Shown here in pieces: positions 1 to 32,927 of a stretch of DNA of 32,927 nt; position 1 is the stretch's first letter, and every line of letters begins with the position of its first letter. Made by a program: the position numbers and the translations under genes. Origin of the DNA: Christensenellaceae bacterium (lineage in GTDB: Bacteria > Bacillota > Clostridia > Christensenellales > Borkfalkiaceae). The notes beneath the pieces were generated by a model. It made no database searches. It had not been told where the DNA came from and saw only the letters and a list, made by a program, of their open reading frames with translations. The stretch spans positions 1 through 32,927 of the forward strand of contig JAZRMS010000049.1 in NCBI GenBank assembly GCA_045647825.1. The letters run 5' to 3'.

Positions 1-141
1 CTATTGTTTCTAAAATTCGACAAATTACGTCAGTTATCGTCCATTTTTTTACAGGAAGTTTGCTTCTCACAACATTAAAAGTATAAGAAAGCTTTAAATT
101 TTCTCTGCTCTGCTCTGAAGTAAAGGGGGCTGTATAAGTCC
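1..141. repeat. Terminal direct repeat copy 1 (circular-assembly overlap)
   Basis: Positions 1..141 (ctattgtttctaaaattcgac...gggggctgtataagtcc) are identical to 32787..32927. They lie inside a continuous minus-strand ORF. Confidence 0.95.
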
Positions 142-931
142 AGTTGTAATTATAGGTTATTGTGTAAACCCCTATAGGCAAACTTGCCATATTGTTTGTT
201 GTAGCAAAACTTTCCCCACTAGCATTTTTTAAGCTTAAAATCTCTTCTGTATAATTTCCTGTTGACCCGTCAGGAAAACTTATACCGCCAGGCAAATTTT
301 CGTTTGTTTTAAGAGCGCTAGGCGAAATAAATGTAACGTTTTCTCCGACAACGTCAACAGGAAACACGCTACTTACAAAATAGCCTGTATTTACATTTGG
401 AATAGACCCCGCATCTGCATATTGAGTTTCAAAACTGTAATAGCATTGTGCATAACTTTTACCTGCTTCGCTTCGTTTACCTAAAGGGTTTGTAAACGTT
501 AAAGAGTCGCCTATAAACCCTTCTAAAAATTTAGTAAATTCTATCAAATATAAAACGTGATTATATTTGCCTGAGCCTATAGGTCTTTCGGTTGCTTTAT
601 CATTTGCTACAAGCATTAAAATTTCTTTTTTAACTATTGCTTTATTGTTTTCAAAATCTGCTATATAGTCGCTTTGTTCAAAGTCACTATTTGCAAATAA
701 AGCATTATAATCGTTTGAGCTAATCTTGTTGTTTGTTTCGTTTATAATCGTTACCTTAACCTTTGTTAAAGGCTCAAATATAGACTGTGAAACAAATTGT
801 AGTTGTAGTTCTGCCTCGTCAAGTTGTTCGTCAAGCAATTCGCTAACTTTGAAAGGCATTGCAACGTTTGAGGAATAGTCTTGACATTTGTCTAACTCTT
901 CGTTATAGATTTCTATTTTTACTCTATTCAT
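1..931 (-). CDS. N-terminal part of a large tail/virion protein that continues across the circular junction into 30523..32786 (about 1064 aa in total)
   Basis: I checked every codon of the minus frame from 931 down to 1 and found no stop. The frame is the same as the track ORF 30523..32856, whose listed GTG 'start' at 32856 (= position 70) is an internal Val. ATG at 931 overlaps the upstream stop as ATGA. The alternative ATG at 859 has no Shine-Dalgarno sequence. The ORF is missing from the track because it runs off the window edge. Confidence 0.8.
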   Translation of the reverse strand, partial: MNRVKIEIYNEELDKCQDYSSNVAMPFKVSELLDEQLDEAELQLQFVSQSIFEPLTKVKVTIINETNNKISSNDYNALFANSDFEQSDYIADFENNKAIVKKEILMLVANDKATERPIGSGKYNHVLYLIEFTKFLEGFIGDSLTFTNPLGKRSEAGKSYAQCYYSFETQYADAGSIPNVNTGYFVSSVFPVDVVGENVTFISPSALKTNENLPGGISFPDGSTGNYTEEILSLKNASGESFATTNNMASLPIGVYTITYNYNWTYTAPFTSEQSRENLKLSYTFNVVRSKLPVKKWTITDVICRILETI

Positions 932-1401
932 TGCCCTCGACTTCCCCCTGTTCCTGCTCTTACAATATTCATTCTTATACTTTCATCTTCTATAGACTGT
1001 TGAAGTCTAAGCAAACTATAATTATTATAGTAGTTAATGGCGGTATGAGCTGCACCTGTTACAAGACCAATTAAAGCACCTGGCAAACCACCTGTAGCCG
1101 CACCAATTGCTACTTTCTCGCCTATAGAATAAGCTTTAGTTAATAAGCCATAATAAAAATTCGCTTGGTCTTGCTGTCTATTTGAGCCAGACCTTAAGCC
1201 TACTTTTTGAACTTCGTTTGATATAACTTGCGATACAAAAGGTTTTACTTGCCTATAAGCCACAAAAAGCCCTATATCGTTCATACTTATTTTTCTGTTA
1301 GAAGAAGATGCTTGAGAAGTGGTAGAAGCCGTTTCTTGACCTGCTACAGGGTTAAAACTCTCACTTGTTTTATCTTCTATTACAATTTTATAAACTGCCA
1401 T
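928..1401 (-). CDS. Hypothetical virion-module protein with a Gly/Ala-rich glycine-zipper-like hydrophobic segment
   Basis: 157-aa ORF with RBS gaggttctt-ATG. It contains the segment GAATGGLPGALIGLVTGAAH and is translationally coupled (ATGA) to the large tail gene. Confidence 0.6.
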   Translation of the reverse strand: MAVYKIVIEDKTSESFNPVAGQETASTTSQASSSNRKISMNDIGLFVAYRQVKPFVSQVISNEVQKVGLRSGSNRQQDQANFYYGLLTKAYSIGEKVAIGAATGGLPGALIGLVTGAAHTAINYYNNYSLLRLQQSIEDESIRMNIVRAGTGGSRGQ

Positions 1402-1408
1402 AAGAACC

Positions 1409-2569
1409 TCATAAAAGGGTTAAATTTGGGTATAAAAGGGTATCAATATAGGTAGTGCATAACACTTTACCACCAATAGGCACAAACCCTTCATCTTCAA
1501 TCAAAACGCCGTTAGCATCGTAGGCAACACCAAAGTTCTTATCAGACGGTGAATAAGAAGTATCTGCCGTCGCTTGATAAACAACCCAACCTTGAGTAGA
1601 TATTAACGAATATAGTTTAGGCGCAAGCGTAAAGGTAACTTTCAAGCCTATGTTTTGTAAACCGCTCAACGTGCCTGAAACTTCCGTAATAATTACAAGA
1701 TAATTAGGCAACTCGCTTTCTTGGTAATCATAATATTTAAGGCGTGTTTTCAATACGTGAACCCTGTTTAAGTCTTGGTTATCCAAAGCTTCATCTAAAA
1801 ATGCGATTGTAGTATCGTTGTCTTTTAAAGCTGGTATATCAAAAGTAAACGTTGTTTGCTTGAAAGTAGGCACGCCCACTATTTCGCCGTTGTTATTGCT
1901 AAATAGGTTTTGGTCGGCATTTTTAATATGTGTAAACGTTGCAGACGTGTAAGGTATTTCTTTACCGTCTAAATAAAACTTTCCTTCTTGTGAGTTTAAG
2001 CCATTGGCTATAATGTTAAAATAAAAGTTTACAAAGAACGAATAAGAATAACCTAGTATAGGTGTTTCTGCTCTATTCTCCCCGTTTGCTATCTGCGCAA
2101 GTATCGTGCATACGTAAGGCACTCCTTGTCTATCTTCAATGCTTTCAAGGTTATTTTCACTACCACTAAAAGCAGTATCTAATACCTTACGAATTAAAGA
2201 TAACTTTGTGCTGTTGCCTATAAAGAGTTGAGTTGGTATTTGAGGCTCGTTAGTGTCTAAATCATATTCCGTTTCTTCTCCGTCATAGTTGTCGTCTTCA
2301 AGCCTTACTATAACTTCTAATCGTAAAGGTAAACTAACAAATTCTATTCCGTTAGAGAGAACGTATTTCTCGCTCATTCCAACAACTGCTAAGCCGTTTA
2401 TATATTCCGTATACTCGTTTGTTAATTGCTCTTTTAGGTCTTCTTGTAGCACTCCCGTATCGGTAAATATCTTAAATTGTATATTGCCTAATAAAGGCTC
2501 GTTTAAGCTAGTTAAAGCCCCGTTTAGCTTATTTTCTATGCGTTGCGTTAATTCTTTAATCTCTACCAT
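1409..2569 (-). CDS. Structural protein (386 aa) in the position of a tail-tube or tail-adaptor protein; family not recognised
   Basis: Internal ATG 2569 is preceded by gagagga and lies 1 nt after the upstream stop (TAG 2571..2573). The track start at 2611 would overlap the upstream gene by 41 nt. Confidence 0.6.
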   Translation of the reverse strand: MVEIKELTQRIENKLNGALTSLNEPLLGNIQFKIFTDTGVLQEDLKEQLTNEYTEYINGLAVVGMSEKYVLSNGIEFVSLPLRLEVIVRLEDDNYDGEETEYDLDTNEPQIPTQLFIGNSTKLSLIRKVLDTAFSGSENNLESIEDRQGVPYVCTILAQIANGENRAETPILGYSYSFFVNFYFNIIANGLNSQEGKFYLDGKEIPYTSATFTHIKNADQNLFSNNNGEIVGVPTFKQTTFTFDIPALKDNDTTIAFLDEALDNQDLNRVHVLKTRLKYYDYQESELPNYLVIITEVSGTLSGLQNIGLKVTFTLAPKLYSLISTQGWVVYQATADTSYSPSDKNFGVAYDANGVLIEDEGFVPIGGKVLCTTYIDTLLYPNLTLL

Positions 2570-2570
2570 T

Positions 2571-2873
2571 CTATCCTCTCTTTTTAAAGCTACCGTGTAA
2601 AGTTTCTGCAAGGCTCTCTACTATGTGTTCGGTAGCGTTATCAAACCACTTTTCGTTTGGGTTCTTCTTTCCGTTCCACTTTGGCGATATCCACGGTTCG
2701 TTTGTGTAAACCATATAAGGTGCAATTCTTTGGTCAATAAGTATTTCACAAGTTTTACCATTGAACCTATACCTTATAGCGTTATATCTTAGGTTGCCTG
2801 TATCAATAGGTGCTTTCTCTTTTAATAGCTCTACAGCTTTCAAACATATTTTTTGAAATTTATCGTTTGTCAA
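2571..2873 (-). CDS. HK97 gp10-like head-tail attachment/tail-completion protein
   Basis: 100 aa. The motifs PIDTGNLRYNAI ... APYMVYTNE match the T-G-x-L-R plus Y-x-x-x-x-E pattern of the HK97 gp10 family. The position after the head-tail joining genes also fits. Confidence 0.6.
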   Translation of the reverse strand: MTNDKFQKICLKAVELLKEKAPIDTGNLRYNAIRYRFNGKTCEILIDQRIAPYMVYTNEPWISPKWNGKKNPNEKWFDNATEHIVESLAETLHGSFKKRG

Positions 2874-5655: not shown

Positions 5656-6159
5656 TTATTTATATATTTTTTCAAAGTCTCTTTTACCTACTAATATCTC
5701 ATATTGTTTTATATCGTTATTGTATTGAACAGGGTCAAGAACTTTCATAAATGCTAAATGGTCGCCTAAATCTTTAGCCCACAATACTGAGTCTGACCTG
5801 CCTCCTACACCAAAGAAGTTGTTAAGGTCGGATAACATTCTGCCATACATAGATTTTTTCATTTCTCTACCCCACCCTTTTTCCTTAATATAAGCATCAG
5901 CTTCATCAATTCTTTTTTGAGGTAAATCTTTTAAAGTAAAAGCTTTCGAGCTAGTTTTTTTCTCGTCTAAGTCGATTATAGCATCTTTCTTTAATTCTTC
6001 AATACTTTTCTTTTCTAGCTCTTTTACGTTATCTTTGTGCTTTGAAATGAAAGACTTGACAGCTTCGCCTTTGGTTTGTCCTTCTTTAACGGGGATTGGT
6101 TGTCCCTTGCTTTCTTTTCCGTTTGGGTGAACGGTTATCCATTGGTTTATTTCACTCAT
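5656..6159 (-). CDS. Hypothetical head-module protein
   Basis: 167 aa with RBS aggagataacaaaaATG. It follows the MuF-like gene. The N-terminus reads WITVHPNGKESKGQPIPV. Confidence 0.6.
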   Translation of the reverse strand: MSEINQWITVHPNGKESKGQPIPVKEGQTKGEAVKSFISKHKDNVKELEKKSIEELKKDAIIDLDEKKTSSKAFTLKDLPQKRIDEADAYIKEKGWGREMKKSMYGRMLSDLNNFFGVGGRSDSVLWAKDLGDHLAFMKVLDPVQYNNDIKQYEILVGKRDFEKIYK

Positions 6160-11189: not shown

Positions 11190-12443
11190 TTATTTCTCCT
11201 TTATTGCGTTATACTTTTGCTCAAAAGCATCATAAGTTTTAGGCAAATATTTCTTCATTATATCTAAACCTTTTGTATCGTTTGTCATTTTTAACGAAAA
11301 ATATTCTGCCCACGCCTCACCTTGAGCATTGTGCCACTTGTTATATGAGCCACTGTGTCCATAATATCCGTCAGAATATAAATTTATTTTGTTATTCGTG
11401 TAAAGACCAAAGAAATCAGTTAAAATAGCACAACGTTTAATATTGTTATGGATAGGTCTGTTATGTTTTTCTAACTCTTCGTTATACTCTTTTTGTTTTT
11501 GTTTGGCTCTTGCGTTTGTTCCGTCACTTTCTGCTTGTTGCCAAGCCTTATAGTCTTTATTGTAGCTATCCCAAAGTTTTACAGAGTTTTCATATCCATA
11601 CTCACCAAATAACTGCCTTGCCCTTTCTGGTGTATAACTAGGCTTATATGGTTCTTTTACATAACCAAACTCAGTTAATGATTTGTGCGCCCATAATTGG
11701 TCTTTTTCTGTTGCTTTTGCTAAACCTTTATAAAACGCTCTATATTGCTCACGCTTAATACGGTCCATACTTTTTAACGGTTCAGTTCCACCACCCAACT
11801 TAAGAAAATCGTTAAAACAATTTAAAGCATCTTCGTGAACGCTCACAGTAGAGCTATCATACTTTATACTATAGCCCGTTTTATCCTCTCCTACCATATT
11901 ATCTATAAAGTGTCCATACTCGTGAAAGAAAGTTGTAGCATCAAAATCAAAACCTAACTCTTTATCTAAACCGTCACCGTTAGAGGTTTGGTCATATCTT
12001 AGATATCCACCACCTGTTGAATATTGACCACTACCGTTTGAATACGAGTGTAGCCTATCCGCATATTTAGATATAATAGCAATTTGCTCAGAAGAAAGCT
12101 TGTCTAAGTTTCTCTCCAATTTTTCTTTGGCAGTTTTACTCAACGTTGCAAAAGCTTTAGATTGAGTTATAGTCATCTTGTGACCTTCCCTTTGAGCGTC
12201 AACTTCTTTTACAGGCTCACTCTCAATCTCTTCAGTAGCCTTTTCCTTAAGCTTCTCATACTCGTTTTCAGGGTTTATTCCACGTTTCTTTAGCATCTCC
12301 CAAACTTGTCTAGGGGTCATACCTTCTGTTGATAAACCTAAGCCTTTTGCTATGCCGTATGGTAAACGAGTATTTGCTCCATTGCCTTCGTCTGGCTCAA
12401 CTACTTCAAATTTAGGTTGTTCGTATATTTTCTTTTCTGCCAT
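11190..12443 (-). CDS. Putative zincin-type metallopeptidase (HExxH) protein, 417 aa
   Basis: FFHEYGHFID contains HExxH. The later GHSGSYNKWHNAQGEAWAEYFS could supply a third ligand (E-x-x-A-E-x-F). ATG 12443 has RBS aaagga 10 nt upstream. The track's TTG 12473 has no RBS and is the -35 hexamer of a promoter. Confidence 0.55.
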   Translation of the reverse strand: MAEKKIYEQPKFEVVEPDEGNGANTRLPYGIAKGLGLSTEGMTPRQVWEMLKKRGINPENEYEKLKEKATEEIESEPVKEVDAQREGHKMTITQSKAFATLSKTAKEKLERNLDKLSSEQIAIISKYADRLHSYSNGSGQYSTGGGYLRYDQTSNGDGLDKELGFDFDATTFFHEYGHFIDNMVGEDKTGYSIKYDSSTVSVHEDALNCFNDFLKLGGGTEPLKSMDRIKREQYRAFYKGLAKATEKDQLWAHKSLTEFGYVKEPYKPSYTPERARQLFGEYGYENSVKLWDSYNKDYKAWQQAESDGTNARAKQKQKEYNEELEKHNRPIHNNIKRCAILTDFFGLYTNNKINLYSDGYYGHSGSYNKWHNAQGEAWAEYFSLKMTNDTKGLDIMKKYLPKTYDAFEQKYNAIKEK

Positions 12444-12444
12444 T

Positions 12445-12473
12445 ATTATACATTCCTTTATCGTTTTTGTCAA
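12445..12473 (-). promoter_or_regulatory. Consensus sigma-A/sigma-70 promoter (TTGACA-17-TATAAT)
   Basis: On the minus strand, TTGACA is at 12473..12468 and TATAAT at 12450..12445, with a 17-nt spacer. It lies directly after a strong terminator. The -10 ends 1 nt before ATG 12443. Confidence 0.55.
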
Positions 12474-13787: not shown

Positions 13788-13918
13788 TGCGATTTTTCTT
13801 TCTCCTTCTCTTTTTCGAGTTTTTCGACCTTATTACTTAGTTCTGAATAATTTTCGCCTAACACTATTAAAAAATCATATAACGTCTCTATGTTCCTTTC
13901 CAGTTGTTTCTTTGTCAT
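13784..13918 (-). CDS. Small coiled-coil ORF (44 aa) below the track threshold
   Basis: Sequence MTKKQLERNIETLYDFLIVLGENYSELSNKVEKLEKEKEKEKSQ. It has ATGA overlaps at both ends (13915..13918 and 13784..13787). Confidence 0.5.
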   Translation of the reverse strand: MTKKQLERNIETLYDFLIVLGENYSELSNKVEKLEKEKEKEKSQ

Positions 13919-14178
13919 AAAGCCTCCGTATCAATTTCATAGACTTTAACATATCTTTTCTCTCTTTCAAGGTATTCATCTAAAAGTTTTTTTGATGCTA
14001 CAAGTTTACCTATTGTTAAACCCTTTACAATTGCAGAAACTACAACCATAAAAAAACCTAAAACGCCAAATAACCAAAACTTAGAAACTAACGAAATAAG
14101 AGTAAAACCTATGCCTGTCAACAATTCCAGCATACCAAAGATTACTGAATATTCCTTTTTTCTATTTCTTTTCTTCAT
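13915..14178 (-). CDS. Small two-TM membrane protein
   Basis: 87 aa with two hydrophobic helices, LELLTGIGFTLISLV and LFGVLGFFMVVVSAIV. Confidence 0.6.
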   Translation of the reverse strand: MKKRNRKKEYSVIFGMLELLTGIGFTLISLVSKFWLFGVLGFFMVVVSAIVKGLTIGKLVASKKLLDEYLEREKRYVKVYEIDTEAL

Positions 14179-23433: not shown

Positions 23434-23458
23434 AATTTTTTAAAAAATTTTTTATAAT
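23430..23458 (+). promoter_or_regulatory. Rightward repressor promoter TTGTAA-17-TATAAT
   Basis: -35 at 23430..23435 and -10 at 23453..23458, with a 17-nt T6A6T5 spacer. The track's ATG 23457 lies inside the -10 hexamer. Confidence 0.7.
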
Positions 23459-23480
23459 GGTTAAAAAAAGGGGGGGTATT

Positions 23481-23810
23481 ATGCAAGTTTTAAAAGAGTT
23501 ACGTAAATTTACAAAGAAAACTCAACAACAAGTAGCCAACGACTTAAGTATAGTTCAACAAAAATACCAACAGTATGAAAGTGGCAAATATCAGCCTGAC
23601 AATGAAATGCTTTTAAAAATAGCAAATTACTTCAATGTGTCGGTAGATTATTTGCTAGGCAGAACGGAAGATAGGCAAGAAGTTACGGTCAAAGAAAAAA
23701 GCCTGTCCAATAACGAACAAGCTTTACTCGATTTGTTTAACAAAGTGCCTATTGACCAACAGGCTCTTGTTCTTTCAATGATTGAGGTTGCTTTAAAAAG
23801 TTTGAAATAA
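23481..23810 (+). CDS. CI-like XRE-family repressor (109 aa, no S24 peptidase domain)
   Basis: The HTH reads KKTQQQVANDLSIVQQKYQQYESGKYQPDNEMLLKIANYFNVSVDYLLG. ATG 23481 is preceded by an A7G7 RBS. The gene is divergent from the early operon. Confidence 0.8.
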   Translation: MQVLKELRKFTKKTQQQVANDLSIVQQKYQQYESGKYQPDNEMLLKIANYFNVSVDYLLGRTEDRQEVTVKEKSLSNNEQALLDLFNKVPIDQQALVLSMIEVALKSLK

Positions 23811-24029: not shown

Positions 24030-24437
24030 ATGTGGATAGACAAACTTATTGAACTGAAAAAAAAGTCTGGTTATTCTTCAAAACAAATAGCAGAAGGGAC
24101 ATTTATGCCAGAACGAACGGTATCACGTATCTTTGCAAAAGAAACAAACGGACCTTCTATAACAACTTTAATACCTATAATTAACTTTTTAGGGGGGTCT
24201 TTAGACGAATTATTTGCCGATACCGATGCAGTAATTGGTAATAAAAAGTTTGCCGATTTGCAAGTCAAATGCGACCTTGTAACAGCCGAAAAAGACCTAT
24301 TAACTACCGAAAATGCCATATTAAAAGACCAAATAATCAGCTTGAACGCTAAAATTGAGCTTTTAGAGTTAAAACTTATGTTCAAAGAAGAATTACTAGC
24401 AGTTCACAATTACTACACTAAACTAGGCTCTAAATAA
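24030..24437 (+). CDS. HTH plus coiled-coil protein co-transcribed with the integrase
   Basis: 135 aa. N-terminal HTH YSSKQIAEGTFMPERTVSRIFAKE, C-terminal leucine-zipper-like coil, RBS taggagagacaaaaATG. Confidence 0.65.
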   Translation: MWIDKLIELKKKSGYSSKQIAEGTFMPERTVSRIFAKETNGPSITTLIPIINFLGGSLDELFADTDAVIGNKKFADLQVKCDLVTAEKDLLTTENAILKDQIISLNAKIELLELKLMFKEELLAVHNYYTKLGSK

Positions 24438-24452
24438 AAGGAGTGTGATATT

Positions 24453-25994
24453 ATGATATCATTGCCTAAAGACGGTTTATACTTAATGTATTTAAGAAAA
24501 TCTAGGCAAGACGACCCCAACGAAACTGTGGAAGAAGTGTTACAAAAACACGAGTCACGCTTGCAAGAATTTGCTCTTAGAACGTTAGGCTATAGAATAG
24601 AAGAAAAAAATATCTATCGTGAAATCGTTTCTGGCGAAACAATAGACGATAGACCTAAAATAAATGAAATCTTTAGAAGATTAGAGCAAGAAGACGTTAC
24701 CGGCGTTCTCGTTGTCAATTGTTCTAGACTTTCGCGTGGCGACCTTGTCGACTGTGGCACAGTAATTCGATGCTTTCTTTATACTAACACGCTTATAATA
24801 ACAGACCTTAAAACTTTCGACCCAAAAGACAAGTTCGACAGACGTATGCTCGAACACGAACTTACAAGCGGTAATTTCTACCTAGAAGAAGCAAAAACGT
24901 ATATGGTAACAGGTAGAGTAGAAAGCGCAAAAAGGGGTAATTTCGTAGGCTCTATAGCCCCTTACGGCTACGAAAGAGTCAAGATAGATAAATCGTGGAC
25001 TTTAAAAATAAACGAGGAACAAGCGCAATATGTAAGGCTTGCATTTGATATGTATGCTAATCAAGGTATTGGCGCTAACGCAATATCTTATAAACTAAAT
25101 AAGCTAGGCGCAAGGTCAAATAATGGCAAGCTCTTTAGGTCTTCTACTATACGTCAAATGCTAACTAACGAAATCTATTGTGGCAAGATAACGTATAAGC
25201 GCAAACCTACCGAAAAAGTTATGGAGAACGGGCGTATTGTAAAAAAGCGTAAAAGAGTAAAAGACTATATCGTTGTTGACGGCAAGCATACGCCTATAAT
25301 TAGTGAAGAACTGTTTTTAAAGGCACTAGAACAAAAAGGCAAAGTTTCTCGCGAGTCACTTTCTCACGAACTACAAAACATTTTTGCAGGGCTTATAAAG
25401 TGCCGTAAATGTAATATGGCAATAGCAATGAGAGTTTACCGTAAAGATAAAGTGCAGTTCCGTAAACCTAGATATTATTGCCGTAACGGTATTTATTGTG
25501 ACAACCAATCTGCTAACGTTGAACTTGTGCAAGAAGCTATCGTTAAAGGCTTAGAAGAGCTTATAGAAGACTTTAAGCTAAAACTCGAAAATCAAGACAA
25601 GACTACTCTCAACACTAACGAAGGGGTAATTAAGGCGCTTGAAAAACAACTTGCCGACTACACTAAACGTCAAGCAGATATATGCGACTACCTTGAAAAA
25701 GGCATCTACACAGTTGAAATGTTTATCGACCGAAAGAAGAAGATTGATAGCGAAATTGCAAGGCTTAATGAGTCGTTGGCAAAAGCTAAAGAGTCGGTAT
25801 CAAAAACTGAGAACTACGAGGAGAAAATTATAGGCTTGCATAATGCTTTAGATACAATAGCAAGTAAAGAATTATCCCCTAAAGAAAAAAACAACCTTCT
25901 AAAGAAGGTTATAAAAGCAATTTATTATTTGAAAGAGGAGGAAGAAGACGTTTCAAACTCTAAAGATATTAAGCTTGAAATCTTGCTTAATTAA
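24453..25994 (+). CDS. int: Large serine recombinase (integrase)
   Basis: Resolvase catalytic domain (YLRKSRQD with the nucleophile Ser; VVNCSRLSRGD), recombinase domain (APYGYERV), Zn-ribbon (CRKCNMAIA...YYCRNGIYCDN) and a C-terminal coiled coil. Confidence 0.92.
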   Translation: MISLPKDGLYLMYLRKSRQDDPNETVEEVLQKHESRLQEFALRTLGYRIEEKNIYREIVSGETIDDRPKINEIFRRLEQEDVTGVLVVNCSRLSRGDLVDCGTVIRCFLYTNTLIITDLKTFDPKDKFDRRMLEHELTSGNFYLEEAKTYMVTGRVESAKRGNFVGSIAPYGYERVKIDKSWTLKINEEQAQYVRLAFDMYANQGIGANAISYKLNKLGARSNNGKLFRSSTIRQMLTNEIYCGKITYKRKPTEKVMENGRIVKKRKRVKDYIVVDGKHTPIISEELFLKALEQKGKVSRESLSHELQNIFAGLIKCRKCNMAIAMRVYRKDKVQFRKPRYYCRNGIYCDNQSANVELVQEAIVKGLEELIEDFKLKLENQDKTTLNTNEGVIKALEKQLADYTKRQADICDYLEKGIYTVEMFIDRKKKIDSEIARLNESLAKAKESVSKTENYEEKIIGLHNALDTIASKELSPKEKNNLLKKVIKAIYYLKEEEEDVSNSKDIKLEILLN

Positions 25995-26001
25995 GGTGTT
26001 T

Positions 26002-26051
26002 TTGTAACACCAACGTGTTACCTATGAATACGGCACGCAATGGTGTTACAA
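26002..26051. other. Candidate attP for the serine integrase
   Basis: A 50-bp element starting 8 nt after the int stop. Perfect 10-bp terminal inverted repeats TTGTAACACC / GGTGTTACAA flank a 30-bp partially symmetric core (8 of 15 positions match). Confidence 0.45.
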
Positions 26052-26081
26052 TATAAAACAATTAAAAAGAGCAAAAAAAAT

Positions 26082-26118
26082 AAGGGAGAACGTCGAAATT
26101 ACTCGAACATTCTCCCTT
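26082..26118. terminator. Bidirectional intrinsic terminator between the integrase and the end of the late operon
   Basis: The 9-bp stem AAGGGAGAA/TTCTCCCTT is flanked by A8 on one side (U8 on the minus transcript) and ATTTATATTT on the other. Confidence 0.8.
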
Positions 26119-26161
26119 ATTTATATTTAATAATTATATAATAATGTTTATATACTAATAT

Positions 26162-27076
26162 CTATAGTGTATATCTTTTTAAGTTCTCAGGGCGTTGCTC
26201 CCAAGAGAAGAAACTGTTTAAAACTGCTATTCTCTCTTCACAACGTTTTAGTTGCAATAACTCTTCTTTCCAACCGTGTGATAGCCCGCTAAACACCGTC
26301 AATATGATAATTAACAAGTGGAGCATTGCTTTCATAAGCACTTCAGGGCTAAAGTCTAAAACTATGATGCAAGACAATTGATACGTGAAGAAAACGCTCA
26401 ATGCTGTTGTAATAAGTTTCAAGCCCCAACGATAGGCTCTGTAAAGCCAAATTCCCGTATCGCTAGATATAAAGTCTTTTCTTTTGTCATTGTCCTTTTC
26501 GTTGTATATTTGGGCTTTAGTAAGGCGTTTAGGCTTAATTTCTTTAGCTTCTTCTAACGCCTTAACTTGCCCTTCGTTTAACGTCTTTTCAAGCTTTCCG
26601 TCTAAATAAAGCTCAAAGTCTTCAAACGTTAAATTGTTACTATGTAATTTATTAAGCTGAGCCATTTTTAAGTCTTCAGCTACGTGGTCTCGGCAAAAGT
26701 CGTAAATCTTATACTCAATCTTTTTGTTTGCTATTTCGTTTATTTTTGCTTTATACTCGTCAAAAGCTTTTTTGTAAAACTCTCTGCCTTGACAACATTG
26801 TTTACCCGTTGGGTAACAATTTATGTAAAGCAAGTAAACGAGAACGGCAAGCACTATAGCCGTTGCATCAATGTTTTTTAAACTAAAGCCACCGTCATCA
26901 AAATTGTAAGTGCTTATAAGAATAATAAGTATAGGCGCAATAACAAGCAAGCCTATTGAGAACTTTGAGCCGTGTATAGTGAAAAACGAAAAAAGAGAAA
27001 ATTTCAAGTCTTTAGGTTTTGCAACTTTTTTTTCCGTAGTTTTATTTGAGTTTTTAATATCGTCTAAATAGCCCAT
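26162..27076 (-). CDS. Four-TM membrane protein with a central soluble helical domain (304 aa)
   Basis: TM helices LLVIAPILIILISTY, AIVLAVLVYLLYI, LITTALSVFFTYQLSCIIVL and LLIIILTVFSGL. It is the last gene of the late operon. Confidence 0.65.
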   Translation of the reverse strand: MGYLDDIKNSNKTTEKKVAKPKDLKFSLFSFFTIHGSKFSIGLLVIAPILIILISTYNFDDGGFSLKNIDATAIVLAVLVYLLYINCYPTGKQCCQGREFYKKAFDEYKAKINEIANKKIEYKIYDFCRDHVAEDLKMAQLNKLHSNNLTFEDFELYLDGKLEKTLNEGQVKALEEAKEIKPKRLTKAQIYNEKDNDKRKDFISSDTGIWLYRAYRWGLKLITTALSVFFTYQLSCIIVLDFSPEVLMKAMLHLLIIILTVFSGLSHGWKEELLQLKRCEERIAVLNSFFSWEQRPENLKRYTL

Positions 27077-27079
27077 TTA

Positions 27080-27532
27080 TTATTCCTTTTCTGTTAAATT
27101 TAAGCTTAAAAGTTTAGCGTTTACTTCTTGTAATGTTAATGTTTTTAATTTGTTACCGTCTTTATCTACTGCATTTTCGGTGTAAATAGTTGCTATTTGG
27201 TATGGATACCACGCTATAATTGAGCCTACTATACTTGCTATAGCAATTAAAGTTAAATCATCTAAAAATGATTTTAACCCTAAAGAAACAAGCAAGACTA
27301 CTAGAGAGCCAAAGCCTAAAGGCGTTAAAACCTTACAGAAAGACTTTACGACCTTTTTTGCATAGATAATAAAGAACAATAGCATTATTACAGAAAGGCT
27401 AGATAGTGCCGTTTCTGAAGTCTTAAAAAGCTCGTCACGCTTAATTACTGCTAAGATAATTAAAGGTATAGCGTAAATTAAAATAGAGAGCGTAGCAAAA
27501 GCTACGCCCTTTCCTTTATTGTTTAATTTCAT
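27080..27532 (-). CDS. Four-TM small membrane protein, holin-like by position (150 aa)
   Basis: Four hydrophobic helices. It is spaced 3 nt from the next gene and 17 nt from the previous one. Confidence 0.6.
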   Translation of the reverse strand: MKLNNKGKGVAFATLSILIYAIPLIILAVIKRDELFKTSETALSSLSVIMLLFFIIYAKKVVKSFCKVLTPLGFGSLVVLLVSLGLKSFLDDLTLIAIASIVGSIIAWYPYQIATIYTENAVDKDGNKLKTLTLQEVNAKLLSLNLTEKE

Positions 27533-27549
27533 TTTGGGTTTACCCCCTT

Positions 27550-28338
27550 TTAGCCTAATACTTTTTTAACAGTTTCTTCGCCTAAAGCAGTTTTTAACTT
27601 TTCAATTTCAACTTCTTTAGTTTTTAAAAGTTCGGTATTTGGGCATTTGCAAAGTTCGTTGAGCATTGCCGTTTTACCTGCATCTTGAGCAAGTATCTTT
27701 AATGCGCTTACAACCTTTTCAATATAGGCAACGTTTACGTCTGCTTTTTGTAACAACTCGCCTATTGTGTTACTGTCCAACTTAAGATTTTTAATAACGC
27801 TTGCTTCAAGCTCTGCGCATACGGTTCTTACTACACCTTCGATGCCGTCTTTAGATAAAACTTCTACTAATTCTTTATATTTGTTTTTGTCACTCTCGTT
27901 TTGAGATGCAAGCTCGCTAAGGGCTTTTACTTGCTCCCCAAGAGCTTTTACTTTCCCTGTTTTAGTAATAAATTTGCCAAGAAAAACAACAAGTAATAAT
28001 GTAGCAAGAAGAGCGACTGCGCATATAATATATAACTTCTCAGGACTCATATCAAACCTTTTAGCGAGTGCTTGCGAAACCGTTGAAACAGTAGTTTTTT
28101 GGTTTTCAGTGAGCGCTCCGTCAATAATTGCTTTAAGTTCGCTTTCTGTAAGCTCGTATTTTGGCTCTTCTACACTCTCTTTTTCGGTTTCGAGTATTTC
28201 TTCATCTTCTACGATTTCTTCGCTCTCAGTGGCAATTTCGCCTTCTACTGCACTTTCTTCTGCAAAAGCTGTAACTGTGGTAAAACTAAATATGCTAAAG
28301 CATATTAAAGCTAACAATAAATATTTTAATTTTTTCAT
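27550..28338 (-). CDS. Secreted/type-I membrane protein with an acidic ectodomain and a cytoplasmic coiled coil (262 aa)
   Basis: ATG 28338 has RBS aaggagataaaaattATG. The signal peptide is MKKLKYLLLALICFSIFSFTTVTAFA|EE, followed by an E-rich stretch and then the TM helix IICAVALLATLLLVVFLG. Confidence 0.65.
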   Translation of the reverse strand: MKKLKYLLLALICFSIFSFTTVTAFAEESAVEGEIATESEEIVEDEEILETEKESVEEPKYELTESELKAIIDGALTENQKTTVSTVSQALAKRFDMSPEKLYIICAVALLATLLLVVFLGKFITKTGKVKALGEQVKALSELASQNESDKNKYKELVEVLSKDGIEGVVRTVCAELEASVIKNLKLDSNTIGELLQKADVNVAYIEKVVSALKILAQDAGKTAMLNELCKCPNTELLKTKEVEIEKLKTALGEETVKKVLG

Positions 28339-28351
28339 AATTTTTATCTCC

Positions 28352-28771
28352 TTAAATATTAAATATGTTCTTTTTTTCGTTTTCGAGTGTTTCAACTCTT
28401 GCTTTTAAGTCTGCTATAATTTTTTCGTAGTCATCTCTTATGGCAGAGAGTTCTTTAATTGCTAAGTCTTCTGTTTGCTTAATTTTAACGCCGTCTAAAT
28501 ACCACTTTTTACCGTGTTCTGGTAAATCAACTATAACGTCTAGCCTACCAACCTTTAACAACTCTTCTTCTGTTATTGTAAGACTTAAGCTTTCAGGCAT
28601 TGTGAAAGCCTTAATATCTAAGCCGTTTTTAAGCCAAATAATAGCCTTAGAAAGGTCGTAAGACTTAGAGCTAAACAAGAGTGTAAGTTTGTCGTTTTCG
28701 GTTATATAAAACGGCTCAAAGTCGTTAAATAAAACATAACTAAGATTGTTTAATTCTACTTTTTTTACCAT
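28352..28771 (-). CDS. Hypothetical protein downstream of the fibre (possible fibre accessory/assembly protein)
   Basis: 139 aa with a C-terminal coiled coil and RBS aaggagattaaacaATG. Confidence 0.5.
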   Translation of the reverse strand: MVKKVELNNLSYVLFNDFEPFYITENDKLTLLFSSKSYDLSKAIIWLKNGLDIKAFTMPESLSLTITEEELLKVGRLDVIVDLPEHGKKWYLDGVKIKQTEDLAIKELSAIRDDYEKIIADLKARVETLENEKKNIFNI

Positions 28772-28786
28772 TGTTTAATCTCCTTA

Positions 28787-30472
28787 TTAGTCATCAAGTA
28801 AAGCGCCAGCGCTAAAAGCAGAAAGCGCTTCAAGTATTTTTTGAAGAGAGTATTTTTGTCCGTTGTAGATAATAGCGATAGTTCCGTCTTGTCTAGCTTC
28901 AAAAATGTTAGAACGGTCAGAGTCGCTTGTTCCGTTACCGACCATAAAAACAGGTCTATTGTTACCCCAATTGGAATTATCGTTATACTTTCCTACAACT
29001 GTTTGATGCTCTAACGTTGCCCCTAAGCCTTCGCCGTGAACAAAGTCGCACTCGTAGTCTGCTACAGAATTTTTACCGCCAGCGTGAGAGTGGTTTCCGT
29101 TTGCAAAAGTAAATTCTCCTTCAGCGTGAGAGCAAGCGCCAACCGCGTGAGTATTAAGACCTTCTGCGTGTGAGCATATACCGTCTGCATAAGTATTTTC
29201 GCCTTCTGCGTGTGATGAACGTTGTGTGGCGTGAGTTCCTCTTCCTTCTGCGTGTGAACCGTGATTAGTAGCAAAAGTGTTTTCGCCTTCTGCGTGTGAT
29301 GAATAACCAGATGCTTGAGAACCGCTACCTTCTGCGTGACTTTGGTCGTTGGTCGCTACACAACCATTACCTTCTGCGTGTGAACAAGCGCCTTGAGCGT
29401 GAGTATTAAGACCTTCTGCGTGTGAAACGTAACCTTCTGCATAAGCGCCAAAACCTTCAGCGTGAGCATTTTCGCCATAAGTAGTAGTTTGCTTACCTTC
29501 TGCGTGTGAGTTTGCTCCTAACGTTACGTTGTTGTTACCTTCTGCGTGTGAGTAAGCACCTTTTGCAATTGTTGTAGTGCCTTCTGCTAAACTTCTCTTT
29601 CCTTGAGCTGCACATTTACCCCCAAACGCTACTGAATAATCGCCAGTTGCTCCATATTCAATATCCGTGTTAAGTGAAGGGTCTTTTGCAATAGCGTTAG
29701 CGTTTTTGCCCCTAAAGTTAAAAAAGCCTTCTGGCACTCCTTCTTCTTGGTCTTGGAATTGTTCTACAGCATCTTTGCCTGAGCCTTTTTTAAGTGGAAT
29801 ATCTACTTCTAAGTCAACGTTTTGGAAATCGTCAAAAAGCTCGTTAATAGCCCCTACAACGGTTTTATTCCTTGTCGCAAGGTCTAAATCTTCCTTGTCT
29901 TGTTTCTCCGTTTCAAGGTCGTTTATTTCGCTTGTGTGAGTTTCTACTGTATCTTTTAACTCGTTAATTTGACCTTGTAAGTGTTCTTCGTTATGAACAA
30001 CGGTAATATTTATTGTTTGTAAAGCCTCAATAATTGATTGATAACTGTCAATATCTTCAACGGCAATAGGTGGCACGCCTGCTACTACTTCAAACTCAAA
30101 ACTAAAAGTCGCTAAAACCCTTTCTTCTCGTGTATCTTGTTCGTTGATTGTAACCAGTTCTTCGTTTGTTGCCGTAAATTGAGCCGTTACAGTGCCTGCA
30201 TAAGTAGTTAATGCAGACGGTATATCGTATTGCCACATATAGAGTTGGTTTCCGTTTTGGTCGGTAAACCCTAAATAGCCCGTTTCTGGAGCTAAAGGCG
30301 TTATTACAGTTTTTGTAAATTTTCCGTTTGGAAGCTCAAACCTAGCTTGCAGAACGTTAGTAGGAGCAAGGGGCATAACAATATAAATAGTGTTTGCCTT
30401 GTTGCTACCTTGATTGACTTGACTAGGGGTCAGAGTTATAAGCTTTCCCCCTGCGTTAAATACTGCTAACAT
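28787..30472 (-). CDS. Tail fibre/receptor-binding protein with YadA-head (Hep_Hag)-like repeats
   Basis: After an N-terminal beta-rich domain come a coiled coil, TVVGAINEL, and then 11 copies of S/A-H-A-E-G spaced 7 or 14 residues apart. The C-terminus VGNGTSDSDRSNIFEARQDG is typical of phage fibre and adhesin tips. Confidence 0.75.
   Translation of the reverse strand: MLAVFNAGGKLITLTPSQVNQGSNKANTIYIVMPLAPTNVLQARFELPNGKFTKTVITPLAPETGYLGFTDQNGNQLYMWQYDIPSALTTYAGTVTAQFTATNEELVTINEQDTREERVLATFSFEFEVVAGVPPIAVEDIDSYQSIIEALQTINITVVHNEEHLQGQINELKDTVETHTSEINDLETEKQDKEDLDLATRNKTVVGAINELFDDFQNVDLEVDIPLKKGSGKDAVEQFQDQEEGVPEGFFNFRGKNANAIAKDPSLNTDIEYGATGDYSVAFGGKCAAQGKRSLAEGTTTIAKGAYSHAEGNNNVTLGANSHAEGKQTTTYGENAHAEGFGAYAEGYVSHAEGLNTHAQGACSHAEGNGCVATNDQSHAEGSGSQASGYSSHAEGENTFATNHGSHAEGRGTHATQRSSHAEGENTYADGICSHAEGLNTHAVGACSHAEGEFTFANGNHSHAGGKNSVADYECDFVHGEGLGATLEHQTVVGKYNDNSNWGNNRPVFMVGNGTSDSDRSNIFEARQDGTIAIIYNGQKYSLQKILEALSAFSAGALLDD
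29063..29638 (-). repeat. In-frame tandem array encoding the (x)SHAEGxxTxAxGxx units
   Basis: The plus-strand 12-14-mer ccttctgcgtgtga recurs many times, mostly at a 42-nt period. Confidence 0.85.
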
Positions 30473-30522: not shown

Positions 30523-32927
30523 TTAGAATTTTTTATAAATATCGCTAAGCATTTGGAAAGCGATACATTGTCCTTGTGACGGTTTGTTTTGACCTAAAAC
30601 AAGTTCTCCGCCTTCGTATATGATTTGGTTATTTGCGTTACCGTCTTCGTCTGCTACAGTGATTTCGGTTGTGGTTGGTTCGGTTATTATTGCCCAAGCT
30701 TTGTGTTCAATTCCTCTATAATCATATAACTTAAGGTAAGCATCATATAAAGGCAAATTGTCAATAGGTATCATTGTTTTATAAGGCTCTTCACCGAGCG
30801 GTATAGGCAACATATGCCCACTCGCAAAGTTTTTATTTTCAAGCAAAGATATTTCTTTGTCTAGCAAAACAAACATAAGCTTTGACGGGCTATAATTTAC
30901 AAGTCTACAGTTAGAACCTAAAGCTGAACCTATAATAACGCTACCGTCACTAACGAATTGTAACTCGTAAGATATTGCAGGCACTTCTCTATTGTCTTTT
31001 TGGTAACAAAGAGCAGTAATAGAGTTGTTATTAGTAGCATTGCCTGCCACAAATAAAGGGTTTGGCATTTCTGCACTAGACAACGGCAATGTTTTTGAAT
31101 TGCCTACACTTCCGCTATCTGCAAGTGTCATATAGAGAGAATAAAACCTGCCGTAATTGTCGGTATAAGCAATATAATCGCTATAGAAAGATTCACCGTC
31201 TTGCTTTATATATTGCCCTACAGAGTAGTTGTCTTCAATATCAAAACTAAACACAATAGAGTTCCCGTAAGCAGTAGAAGTAACAGGCAATATGATAAAG
31301 TTGTCAATAGCAACTTCTAGACCGTTTTTTGAGAATGGTTTAATCGTTGCGGCAGAGATAGGTTGCCTAGCCTCGCCTAAGTTTAGCAATTCTTTCATTA
31401 TAAAAGGCTGAACTGTTGAATTGAGTAAAACGTCTGCATCGTTAGCTATATGCGAAACCTTGTTTACGTCTTCCTCATAAATTTTTACGTAGTCGGTTAT
31501 AACGCTTTCTCTTTCTGTGGCTTGCTTTTCGCTAATTTCCCACATACGTTTTTCGCTGTTTAGTCCTACGTATTCAGATTGCCTGTTAAAGTGTTTGGTT
31601 AAAGCCAAAGTGCATTTAAAACAAGTTGGCAAAACTTCTGTAGTAACGGCACTTATATAATAAGTGTCATCATACTTTAAGCCTACTTTAGGTATTTCTG
31701 TCAAATAGCTAAATAAGTAGGTAACCGACTTTTCAACATTGCCTAACCTTGTTATAAGTCCTTTCAAGTGTTCTCCGTAAAACCTTGTTTCTACGGCGTT
31801 TGCGCCTTGATTGTAAGCCATTGTTCTAGGTAACCCCGTTTTAATTATAGGCTTTGTAGTTCTTATTCTTTCTTTATTGTAAGGCACGTATCTAACTTGG
31901 AATTTTAAATTAGCAACTTCTGCAACGGTTGTCATATTCATTTTTTTTCCGCCTAGAACAGCCGTTAAAATGTTATTTATCGCCCAATTTGAAAAATAAT
32001 CGTTAATTGCATTAGGGTTAGTAAAGAATAGCCCCCTTATGTTCTTTTCTCCTGGCACGTAATATAGAGCGTATGCTTTGTTATATGGATATGAGCCACC
32101 ATAAGAAGAAAGGTTGTTATATTCTGCTAAAGAATAAACATAAGGCGTTATATCGTATTCTCTGCCGTCATAAAGCCAAAACAATTGTTCTTTAATACCC
32201 ATTTCGTAAATAGGTTTTGCCGTTTCAATTACTATATTATTGCTGTTATCGTTTATTTCAAGCCTTATTGTTGCTCGTGTAGTTCTTACGCCCTTAAATT
32301 GCCCGTTAAAAGGCTCAACTGTTACGCCTTGTGCATAATTTAAAGCGTTAATCAAATTGTCTACAGAGCTATCTAACGACGTGCAATAATCGTTAATATT
32401 TATGCTTTGCTCTTGTGTTATATAAGCTGTGTTTTTGTTTGCTAAATAAGTTTTTTCGGTTTGACCGTATTCGTCAAAAACAATTTCGTAATACTGCTTT
32501 TTGGTTGTTGTTACAGCAGGCTCGGTTGAATTGTCGTAAAAGTCTTGTTTTATAAGTCCGCTTATTCTAGGCTCGCCGTGAATAAAACCGCCAACTTGCT
32601 GTAACATTTCTCTTAAGGTCATTTTTGACAAAACAAACTCAGGGGCTAAAACTTTATCGAGTTTTTCAGCAAGAGAATTGCTAGCATACTCTCTTCTAAT
32701 TATTCCGTCGATATCTTTATAATACCACACCCCTTGCAGTTTAAATCTTGGCAAACTTGCACCGATATTAAAACCCCTTAAAGGTTCTATTGTTTCTAAA
32801 ATTCGACAAATTACGTCAGTTATCGTCCATTTTTTTACAGGAAGTTTGCTTCTCACAACATTAAAAGTATAAGAAAGCTTTAAATTTTCTCTGCTCTGCT
32901 CTGAAGTAAAGGGGGCTGTATAAGTCC
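30523..32927 (-). CDS. C-terminal part of the junction-spanning large tail/virion protein (same gene as 1..931)
   Basis: The frame stays open from the stop at 30523 to the window edge. GTG 32856 in the track is an artefactual start. The protein is beta-rich (Y/N/T/G) with no long helical tape-measure-like region. Confidence 0.8.
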   Translation of the reverse strand, partial: TYTAPFTSEQSRENLKLSYTFNVVRSKLPVKKWTITDVICRILETIEPLRGFNIGASLPRFKLQGVWYYKDIDGIIRREYASNSLAEKLDKVLAPEFVLSKMTLREMLQQVGGFIHGEPRISGLIKQDFYDNSTEPAVTTTKKQYYEIVFDEYGQTEKTYLANKNTAYITQEQSININDYCTSLDSSVDNLINALNYAQGVTVEPFNGQFKGVRTTRATIRLEINDNSNNIVIETAKPIYEMGIKEQLFWLYDGREYDITPYVYSLAEYNNLSSYGGSYPYNKAYALYYVPGEKNIRGLFFTNPNAINDYFSNWAINNILTAVLGGKKMNMTTVAEVANLKFQVRYVPYNKERIRTTKPIIKTGLPRTMAYNQGANAVETRFYGEHLKGLITRLGNVEKSVTYLFSYLTEIPKVGLKYDDTYYISAVTTEVLPTCFKCTLALTKHFNRQSEYVGLNSEKRMWEISEKQATERESVITDYVKIYEEDVNKVSHIANDADVLLNSTVQPFIMKELLNLGEARQPISAATIKPFSKNGLEVAIDNFIILPVTSTAYGNSIVFSFDIEDNYSVGQYIKQDGESFYSDYIAYTDNYGRFYSLYMTLADSGSVGNSKTLPLSSAEMPNPLFVAGNATNNNSITALCYQKDNREVPAISYELQFVSDGSVIIGSALGSNCRLVNYSPSKLMFVLLDKEISLLENKNFASGHMLPIPLGEEPYKTMIPIDNLPLYDAYLKLYDYRGIEHKAWAIITEPTTTEITVADEDGNANNQIIYEGGELVLGQNKPSQGQCIAFQMLSDIYKKF
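32787..32927. repeat. Terminal direct repeat copy 2 (identical to 1..141)
   Basis: Exact 141-nt identity with the window start. Confidence 0.95.

Follow-up and report, generated by a model that had tools for sequence, protein, structure and literature searches.

Holin plus endolysin is treated as universal in tailed phages, in which few functions are as easily recognised as the endolysin domains. The lytic cassette XepA-XhlA-XhlB-XlyA of PBSX in Bacillus subtilis, which resembles multi-gene cassettes of other Firmicutes prophages, closes the late operon behind the tail genes. XepA is a soluble beta-rich protein, XhlA is a coiled-coil membrane protein essential for lysis, XhlB is a small holin with several transmembrane (TM) helices, and the fourth gene encodes the amidase XlyA (PMC6834076). 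Here we describe a cassette of three membrane-protein genes, A, B and C, which occupies positions 26,162 to 28,338 of a 32,927-nucleotide (nt) contig from a Christensenellaceae bacterium (JAZRMS010000049.1, assembly GCA_045647825.1; hereafter the window). A direct repeat of 141 nt is identical at 1-141 and 32787-32927, so that the window represents a complete, circularly assembled phage genome of 32,786 base pairs (bp). It is a temperate phage of the gut. Judging from context, we put at about even odds that the cassette is the lysis module of this phage lineage and performs the membrane step of host lysis. This reading is based on the position of a conserved block at the end of the late operon, where Firmicutes phages usually carry their lysis genes, on the fact that the block encodes almost the only TM proteins of the genome, and on the absence of any detectable peptidoglycan hydrolase or known holin in the genome or its relatives. 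The phage may therefore burst its host in an undescribed way.

Two further groups of lysis proteins are relevant for comparison. The double-stranded DNA (dsDNA) corticovirus PM2 reportedly uses membrane lysis proteins without having an endolysin of its own, and its lysis is said to have been proposed to depend on host autolysins. PM2 differs from the phage described here in being tailless, in its internal membrane, in its Gram-negative host and in its unrelated proteins; to our knowledge, endolysin-free lysis of this kind has been established for no tailed phage of a Gram-positive host. Amurins, found in small single-stranded DNA and RNA phages, are membrane proteins that lyse cells without a muralytic enzyme, by interfering with wall synthesis at the membrane or from the cytoplasm. 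In contrast to the cassette, they are single short proteins, known only from small phages of Gram-negative hosts, and they have no homology to A, B or C.

Genes and membrane topology of the cassette

The initial annotation of this DNA had placed three tightly packed late genes in the interval expected to hold lysis genes, and this arrangement was confirmed. All three genes are on the minus strand: A (28338..27550) encodes 262 amino acids (aa) and starts with an ATG at 28338 after an AAGGAG ribosome-binding site, B (27532..27080) encodes 150 aa, and C (27076..26162) encodes 304 aa. The gaps are 17 nt between A and B and 3 nt between B and C, and each gene is preceded by its own ribosome-binding site. 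They are the last three cistrons of the late operon. Directly after C we found a strong hairpin terminator (26073..26127; folding free energy, -26 kcal/mol; z = -6.9), an inverted repeat followed by U8. The terminator looks bidirectional, with T-runs flanking both sides. A large serine integrase gene (24453..25994, plus strand) is convergent with the cassette and marks the end of the late region. Between the integrase stop codon and the terminator is an imperfect inverted repeat (26002..26051) made of two 24-nt arms, 75% complementary and separated by 2 nt, which is a candidate attP of the integrase. A scan for sigma-70 promoters returned 10 promoter-like sites in the cassette region, compared to 10.4 expected; one of them, a 10/12 match, lies within gene A (28055-28027).

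Topology was deduced from hydropathy together with counts of K/R and D/E residues, and sidedness was assigned by the positive-inside rule. A begins with a cleavable-looking, signal-like segment that ends in AFA and is followed by EE. The acidic ectodomain has 73 aa (22 D/E against 6 K/R); a single TM helix at approximately residues 100 to 128 of 262 is followed by a K/E-rich helix of ~135 aa, which would form a cytoplasmic coiled coil. B has four hydrophobic segments, predicted to be TM helices with both termini inside, and ends in a charged tail (5 K/R and 6 D/E in the last 39 aa). In C, two plus two TM helices flank a helical domain of ~110 aa. The N terminus, the central domain and the C terminus of C contain 7, 23 and 7 K/R residues, respectively, and the two short loops contain 1 and 0; this distribution places the central helical domain in the cytoplasm. 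Hydropathy and charge agree with the anatomy proposed for A and C in the initial annotation, and the four hydrophobic segments of B with its proposed four TM helices.

By the positive-inside rule, the central domain and both termini of C, the termini of B and the coiled coil of A are all cytoplasmic. The only extracytoplasmic soluble mass of the cassette is the acidic ectodomain of A, which is absent in some variants. As almost all of its soluble parts are cytoplasmic, the cassette can be ruled out as the muralytic enzyme itself. With the hydropathy threshold applied, a hydrophobic segment was present in 5 of the ~50 real proteins of the genome, and three of these five were the adjacent A, B and C. 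The sole other clearly transmembrane protein has 87 aa and two TM helices and is encoded in the early region (13915-14178, minus strand). It gave only weak matches to membrane families (SLATT_1, E value 0.02) and is not conserved among the relatives. The ratios of nonsynonymous to synonymous substitution against a 94%-identical relative were 0.16 for A, 0.18 for B and 0.07 for C; as judged from this sequence comparison, the three genes are under purifying selection.

We modelled C and B with AlphaFold2. The model of C, built from an alignment of 101 sequences, was of high confidence and all-helical (predicted local distance difference test [pLDDT], 86.5; predicted template-modelling score, 0.79) and had four long TM helices running into a cytoplasmic helical bundle. 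The near-invariant residues of C are G91, C128, L144, G264 and G268, the last two being located in TM helix 4 with GxxxG spacing. Foldseek searches, the fold check proposed with the initial annotation, were run for B and C. For C they revealed no analogue in the PDB (best E value, 0.46; template-modelling score, ~0.2), and in BFVD they retrieved uncharacterised phage proteins only (template-modelling score up to 0.76). The model of B was of moderate quality (pLDDT, 68.7). Its single significant match in BFVD was an uncharacterised protein of 'Siphoviridae sp. cttDR14', a metagenomic phage that also has a protein matched by C, and no significant match of B was annotated as a holin.

The cassette resembles that of PBSX in that it closes the late operon after the tail genes, and also in order and general shape: a 139-aa protein encoded directly upstream of A (28352..28771, minus strand), A and B correspond to XepA, XhlA and XhlB. 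The 139-aa protein combines a beta-rich N-terminal part with a C-terminal coiled coil. However, the fourth gene is an amidase gene in PBSX, and here it encodes the membrane protein C, with no amidase detected in the genome. Moreover, there was no sequence or profile similarity to XhlA (PF10779), XhlB, BhlA or the Pfam holin families; XhlA is a third as large as A, which in this phage has a signal peptide and an ectodomain in addition. Canonical holin-endolysin pairs, including those with four-TM holins, share with the cassette the genome position and the appearance of B, which is small and late-encoded and has 150 aa, four TM helices, both termini inside and a charged C-terminal tail, features that fit the shape of a holin (at least one TM helix). 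B is nevertheless holin-like in size and shape only. Unlike in the canonical arrangement, there is no adjacent endolysin gene and no Pfam or PHROG holin match, and the conserved core is the 300-aa C instead of a small protein. The signal peptide of A is also unlike that of spanins, in that it has no lipobox (Ile precedes Cys13, and cleavage is likely at AFA/EE), and the hosts are Clostridia.

Conservation in relatives and the search for lysis enzymes

A search of a word-indexed set of 5.8e9 proteins returned only five homologues of C, all of them within the same order of genes for the 139-aa protein, A, B, C and an integrase. This order is kept in the loci L001 to L004 and L063, with an integrase of either the serine or the tyrosine type, and the syntenic homologues of A come from the same loci. 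B had nine homologues in the set. A full HMMER search for the C family among 1.84e9 proteins yielded ~185 clusters at 50% identity, all full-length at ~280 to 340 aa and belonging to no Pfam family; the capsid family of the lineage comprises 373 clusters. C had no match in a scan of close relatives in IMG/VR or in a profile scan of GTDB genomes.

We also fetched 40 IMG/VR loci, anchored on the conserved N terminus of the tail protein. Where the fetched DNA reached the end of the late operon, it usually showed a triplet of the A-B-C type. A heuristic count gave 17 complete triplets among the fetched loci and called genes added one (L061), for a total of at least 18; in ~10 further loci, A and B are followed by the end of the fetched DNA. 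The variants of A are bitopic proteins with a cytoplasmic coiled coil, with or without the signal peptide and acidic ectodomain, the B-type four-TM proteins have 150 to 170 aa, and the C-type proteins with two plus two TM helices have 280 to 380 aa. In the distant contexts of the C family (L057 to L062), an analogous triplet ends the late operon, and in the longer ones (L057, L060, L061 and L062) the triplet is followed by an integrase gene. C is homologous across many loci according to iterated hidden Markov models (HMMs) and hhalign (97% probability), and it is the best-conserved member of the cassette. Homology of B extends across some loci, among them L025, L043 and L053, whose B genes were linked to it by an iterated HMM. 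The variants of A and a second type of B are related by architecture only. An iterated HMM detected the 139-aa family in 18 loci, always before the cassette.

All open reading frames (ORFs) of the window were searched against Pfam-A and PHROGs, and those without annotation were rescanned singly at E ≤ 1. Unknown ORFs were additionally compared with NCBIfam and PADLOC, and several ORFs and family profiles were compared with PDB sequences. No ORF matched an amidase, GH25/GH24, CHAP/NlpC-P60, M23, M15/VanY, SLT/transglycosylase or glucosaminidase family in Pfam-A or PHROGs, nor did these muralytic families appear among the NCBIfam matches of the unknown ORFs or the PDB matches of the selected ones. 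The statement of the initial annotation that no endolysin is recognisable therefore held, to the depth of profile searches. Holin families likewise went unmatched by any ORF in Pfam-A and PHROGs, including the unknown ORFs at E ≤ 1, and by the ORFs compared with NCBIfam and PDB sequences, and A, B, C and their variants had no significant holin match in either library. The closest approach was a weak match to Phage_holin_3_6 in 2 of 101 members of the C family (best E value, 6e-4). LrgA (PF03788) and LrgB (PF04172) were not matched, and profiles gave no significant support for gtrABC, LrgAB, XhlAB or SLATT. For A, there was no family match at all in Pfam, PHROGs, PADLOC or NCBIfam.

The same picture was obtained with the relatives. 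Among 140 representative ORFs from the region between tail and lysogeny genes, 24 Pfam families were recognised at E ≤ 1e-3, none of them a lysin or holin; 146 representatives of the other regions gave no lysin or holin among the best 25 of 26 families at E ≤ 1e-4. Precomputed Pfam annotations of 11 contigs contained neither function, no lysin was found within 10 kb of the cassette in the contexts examined, and the cassette variants of the relatives matched no Pfam or PHROG family. No counterpart was found among deposited phages: against INPHARED, neither a 13-kb megablast nor tblastn searches with A, B, C, two further members of the C family and the capsid protein returned a match. The sole resemblance to a deposited phage is in the portal protein, which is weakly similar to that of Listeria siphophages (24% identity). 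None of the families of A, B and C is represented in Pfam, PHROGs, NCBIfam, PADLOC or the PDB, or in deposited phage genomes. Lysis cassettes in terminal position are already known as a kind of system; the composition of this one, the consistent absence of an endolysin and a four-TM core protein of 300 aa would be new.

Several proteins of the window were considered as hidden lysins, in line with the profile checks suggested at the outset for the 139-aa, 1064-aa and cassette proteins, none of which matched a lysin or holin family. The 139-aa protein had no Pfam, PHROG or PDB match. Its family conserves columns of L, Y, N, G, K, R and E that look structural, with no catalytic-looking pattern of Cys, His or acidic residues. 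We therefore rejected it; it is not enzyme-like and is probably tail- or fibre-associated or accessory. A 427-aa protein (11190..12473, minus strand) contains an HExxH motif within the invariant TTFxHEYGH and a second invariant motif, WAEYFS, and from these motifs it looks like a zincin metalloprotease. It matched nothing in Pfam, PHROGs, NCBIfam, PADLOC or the PDB. Homologues were present in only three relatives (L008, L011 and L014), in a variable slot upstream of the small terminase subunit gene that elsewhere holds polyvalent-protein domains (MuF_C, LPD and PBECR). With this distribution it cannot be the lysin of the lineage, and we regard it as accessory. The 1064-aa tail protein was also set aside, having no Pfam, PHROG or PDB match.

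Proposed role in lysis and rival explanations

To lyse a walled host, a tailed phage has to overcome both the membrane and the wall. If the cassette is the lysis module, the following sequence of events may be proposed. At the end of the late phase, C, as the conserved core with four TM helices and the GxxxG-spaced glycine pair in TM helix 4, would oligomerise and permeabilise or depolarise the membrane. The small four-TM B and the bitopic coiled-coil protein A could act as co-holin, timing or scaffolding partners, comparable to XhlA and XhlB of PBSX. The wall might then be breached by host autolysins freed from control when the proton motive force collapses, as reportedly proposed for PM2, by an amurin-like interference of the cytoplasmic domain of C with wall synthesis, or by a cryptic phage enzyme of a fold missed by current profiles. 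Autolysin-mediated lysis has been discussed elsewhere (PMC11054506).

The initial annotation had listed lysis or release independent of a muralytic enzyme among its explanations. A fixed, lineage-wide terminal module and the lack of a lysin in the relatives make this the best fit, although the argument still comes from genomic context. In its strongest form, a tailed temperate phage lineage of walled Clostridia would lyse its hosts without any phage-encoded muralytic enzyme, by a three-protein inner-membrane machine with C as its core, either unleashing autolysins through collapse of the membrane potential or acting like amurins and blocking wall synthesis at the cytoplasmic face. We offer this form tentatively, as possible but doubtful. 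If it is true, Caudoviricetes would have endolysin-free lysis as a third kind of strategy. A lineage abundant in gut metagenomes, with its 373 capsid and ~185 C clusters, departs from the holin-endolysin pattern. Should the cassette alone lyse cells, it would define new lysis proteins and new membrane-active antibacterial effectors, and Gram-positive hosts would be lysable via their own autolysins or by a new mechanism; should a hidden lysin exist, it would have a new muralytic fold.

A number of observations weigh against assigning the cassette to lysis. It has no homology to any holin family, and the 110-aa cytoplasmic domain of C is unusual for a holin. The cassette leaves the wall step unexplained, and we know of no dsDNA tailed phage of a Gram-positive host that dispenses with an endolysin of its own. 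A truly novel lysin fold may escape profile searches, and the structure models cover B and C only, not the 1064-aa tail protein or the 427-aa HExxH protein. The sigma-70 scan may miss a weak internal promoter, so that expression from the prophage is possible. Furthermore, A is highly variable and barely alignable between sub-lineages, and two loci, L019 (16847-17263) and L022 (14524-14940), do not have B. These two loci keep A and a C-like protein of ~380 aa and leave no room for B. The four-TM B seems to be dispensable or to have been lost in some members, and its absence there identifies C as the core component.

One alternative is conventional two-step lysis, in which an unrecognisable endolysin is hidden among the unknown ORFs and A, B and C are its holin, antiholin and accessory set. 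Many ORFs, the tail proteins among them, are without annotation, the 139-aa gene is placed where a small lysin could be, the 427-aa protein has an invariant HExxH motif, and models were limited to two proteins. However, few phage functions are covered as well by Pfam and PHROGs as lysin domains, and none was detected in ~290 representative ORFs of the lineage; there were no PDB sequence matches, the HExxH protein is confined to three relatives and a variable slot, and the 139-aa family is without conserved residues of a catalytic type. We consider a hidden endolysin unlikely. The same verdict, in slightly stronger form, applies to the module for superinfection exclusion or receptor masking proposed in the initial annotation and, more broadly, to a module for lysogenic conversion, abortive infection included, which would be expressed from the prophage, its moron slot being flanked by the tail genes and attP. 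The region beside attP commonly holds conversion genes in Gram-positive temperate phages, superinfection-exclusion proteins are often membrane proteins, the variability of A is what an arms race would be expected to produce, and the 10/12 promoter-like site lies inside gene A. A cluster of membrane-protein genes between tail genes and attP/int is also found in gtrABC and superinfection-exclusion modules, where GtrA is a small four-TM protein and GtrB has ~300 aa and two TM helices. On the other side, the position of the cassette is fixed and conserved lineage-wide, its genes are co-oriented with and fused to the late operon with no gaps and no regulatory signals of their own, and promoter-like sites are about as frequent as expected by chance. 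No PADLOC match, no GtrA (PF04138) match and no Glycos_transf_2/GT2 glycosyltransferase match was obtained, although profile libraries cover superinfection-exclusion proteins poorly. The soluble domains are cytoplasmic, and the cytoplasmic domain of C is modelled as a 110-aa helical bundle and not as a GT-A fold. In addition, a moron role for the cassette would leave no gene of the phage as a candidate for lysis.

Two other explanations appear weaker than these. The cassette genes follow the tail genes, and their products could serve another late function, as virion-internal or ejection proteins or as a platform in the membrane for assembly or non-lytic release. Foldseek gave 'internal virion proteins' among its weak, non-significant neighbours, and non-lytic chronic release of phages has been reported in Lactococcus (PMC8752148). 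There was no significant structural match, and the Sec-type signal peptide of A and the four strongly hydrophobic helices of B and C would point to co-translational insertion instead of packaging; on these grounds we rejected virion and ejection proteins, and we regard this group of functions as improbable as a whole. A wall-less or atypical host, for which a membrane-disrupting cassette would suffice, was the remaining explanation of the initial annotation. It would fit the lack of a detected lysin across the lineage, and it was contradicted by the evidence on the hosts, which makes it very improbable. All nine GTDB matches of the capsid protein were in metagenome-assembled genomes (MAGs) of Clostridia, named Christensenellaceae (three), Pumilibacteraceae, Eubacteriales and Clostridia, and two of the contigs, of 72 and 57 kb, were well above phage size. 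L057 is an integrated prophage with a C homologue, in which the cassette and a transposase-type integrase are followed by host genes, including those for TyrRS, L32, YceD and MgtC; of five flanking products compared, four are identical or ≥90% identical to proteins encoded by a 'Clostridia bacterium' MAG in NCBI. Finally, the 999-aa tail protein of L061 (4051-7050) contains a GDPD domain, as is typical for phages confronted with teichoic-acid walls. The hosts are walled Clostridia of the Christensenellales type. The initial annotation had also pointed out that TGA is used as a stop codon, and it ends nine genes, which sets the genetic code as table 11; code-11 wall-less lineages exist, and TGA as a stop does not by itself exclude a wall-less host.

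Genome organization and additional observations

Most genes are carried on the minus strand. The order of the genome is lysogeny, early and replication genes, terminase and capsid genes, a short tail module, the 139-aa gene and A-B-C. The lysogeny switch consists of XRE-type regulators (23457..23810 and 24030..24437), recognised by Pfam and PHROGs, and the integrase has Resolvase, Recombinase and Zn_ribbon_recom matches in Pfam as well as PHROG matches. Early and replication genes encode DUF6291, a DnaC-like loader, ERF, a C5 methylase, SSB and a DUF1064 resolvase. The virion genes encode the small and large terminase subunits, portal, a MuF-like minor capsid protein, scaffold and the major capsid protein. 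The tail module comprises proteins of 400 aa, 157 aa (with a Gly-rich hydrophobic segment) and 1064 aa and a 561-aa fibre. The genes for the 400-aa and 157-aa proteins (928-2611, minus strand) and the 1064-aa gene, whose ORF continues from one end of the window to the other (931..1 joined to 32786..30523, minus strand), encode proteins without a family match. Annotation of the ORFs with Pfam and PHROGs revealed no tape-measure gene, and a tail module of this kind suggests a short-tailed virion.

The fibre gene (28787-30472, minus strand) contains ~14 tandem 14-aa repeats with a SHAEG motif at approximately 29030 to 29650. These are weakly similar to YadA head repeats (Pfam E value, 7.5e-4) and match phrog_25468 (E value, 3e-33), and the repeat region is a local peak of G+C content (0.44). 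Between the minor capsid and scaffold genes, a 167-aa protein (5656-6159, minus strand) matches, slightly short of the curated cut-off, the polyvalent-protein-associated domain LPD11 (E value, 1e-5). The MuF_C, LPD13 and PBECR domains of relatives suggest injected effector proteins.

In several relatives, the large tail gene is split by a moron-like gene on the opposite strand. The inserted genes, on the minus strand within the locus (L007, 15374-15754; L009, 14347-14712; L033, 11258-11698; L053, 10370-10759), encode membrane proteins of 120 to 146 aa with two hydrophobic segments. Among the distant phages that carry the cassette, a reverse transcriptase (RVT_1) is encoded beside the tail-fibre genes in L057 (7249-8304), L058 and L059, and Mtd_N receptor-binding domains are present in L060 (5541-7832). 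Both features point to diversity-generating retroelements in these phages.

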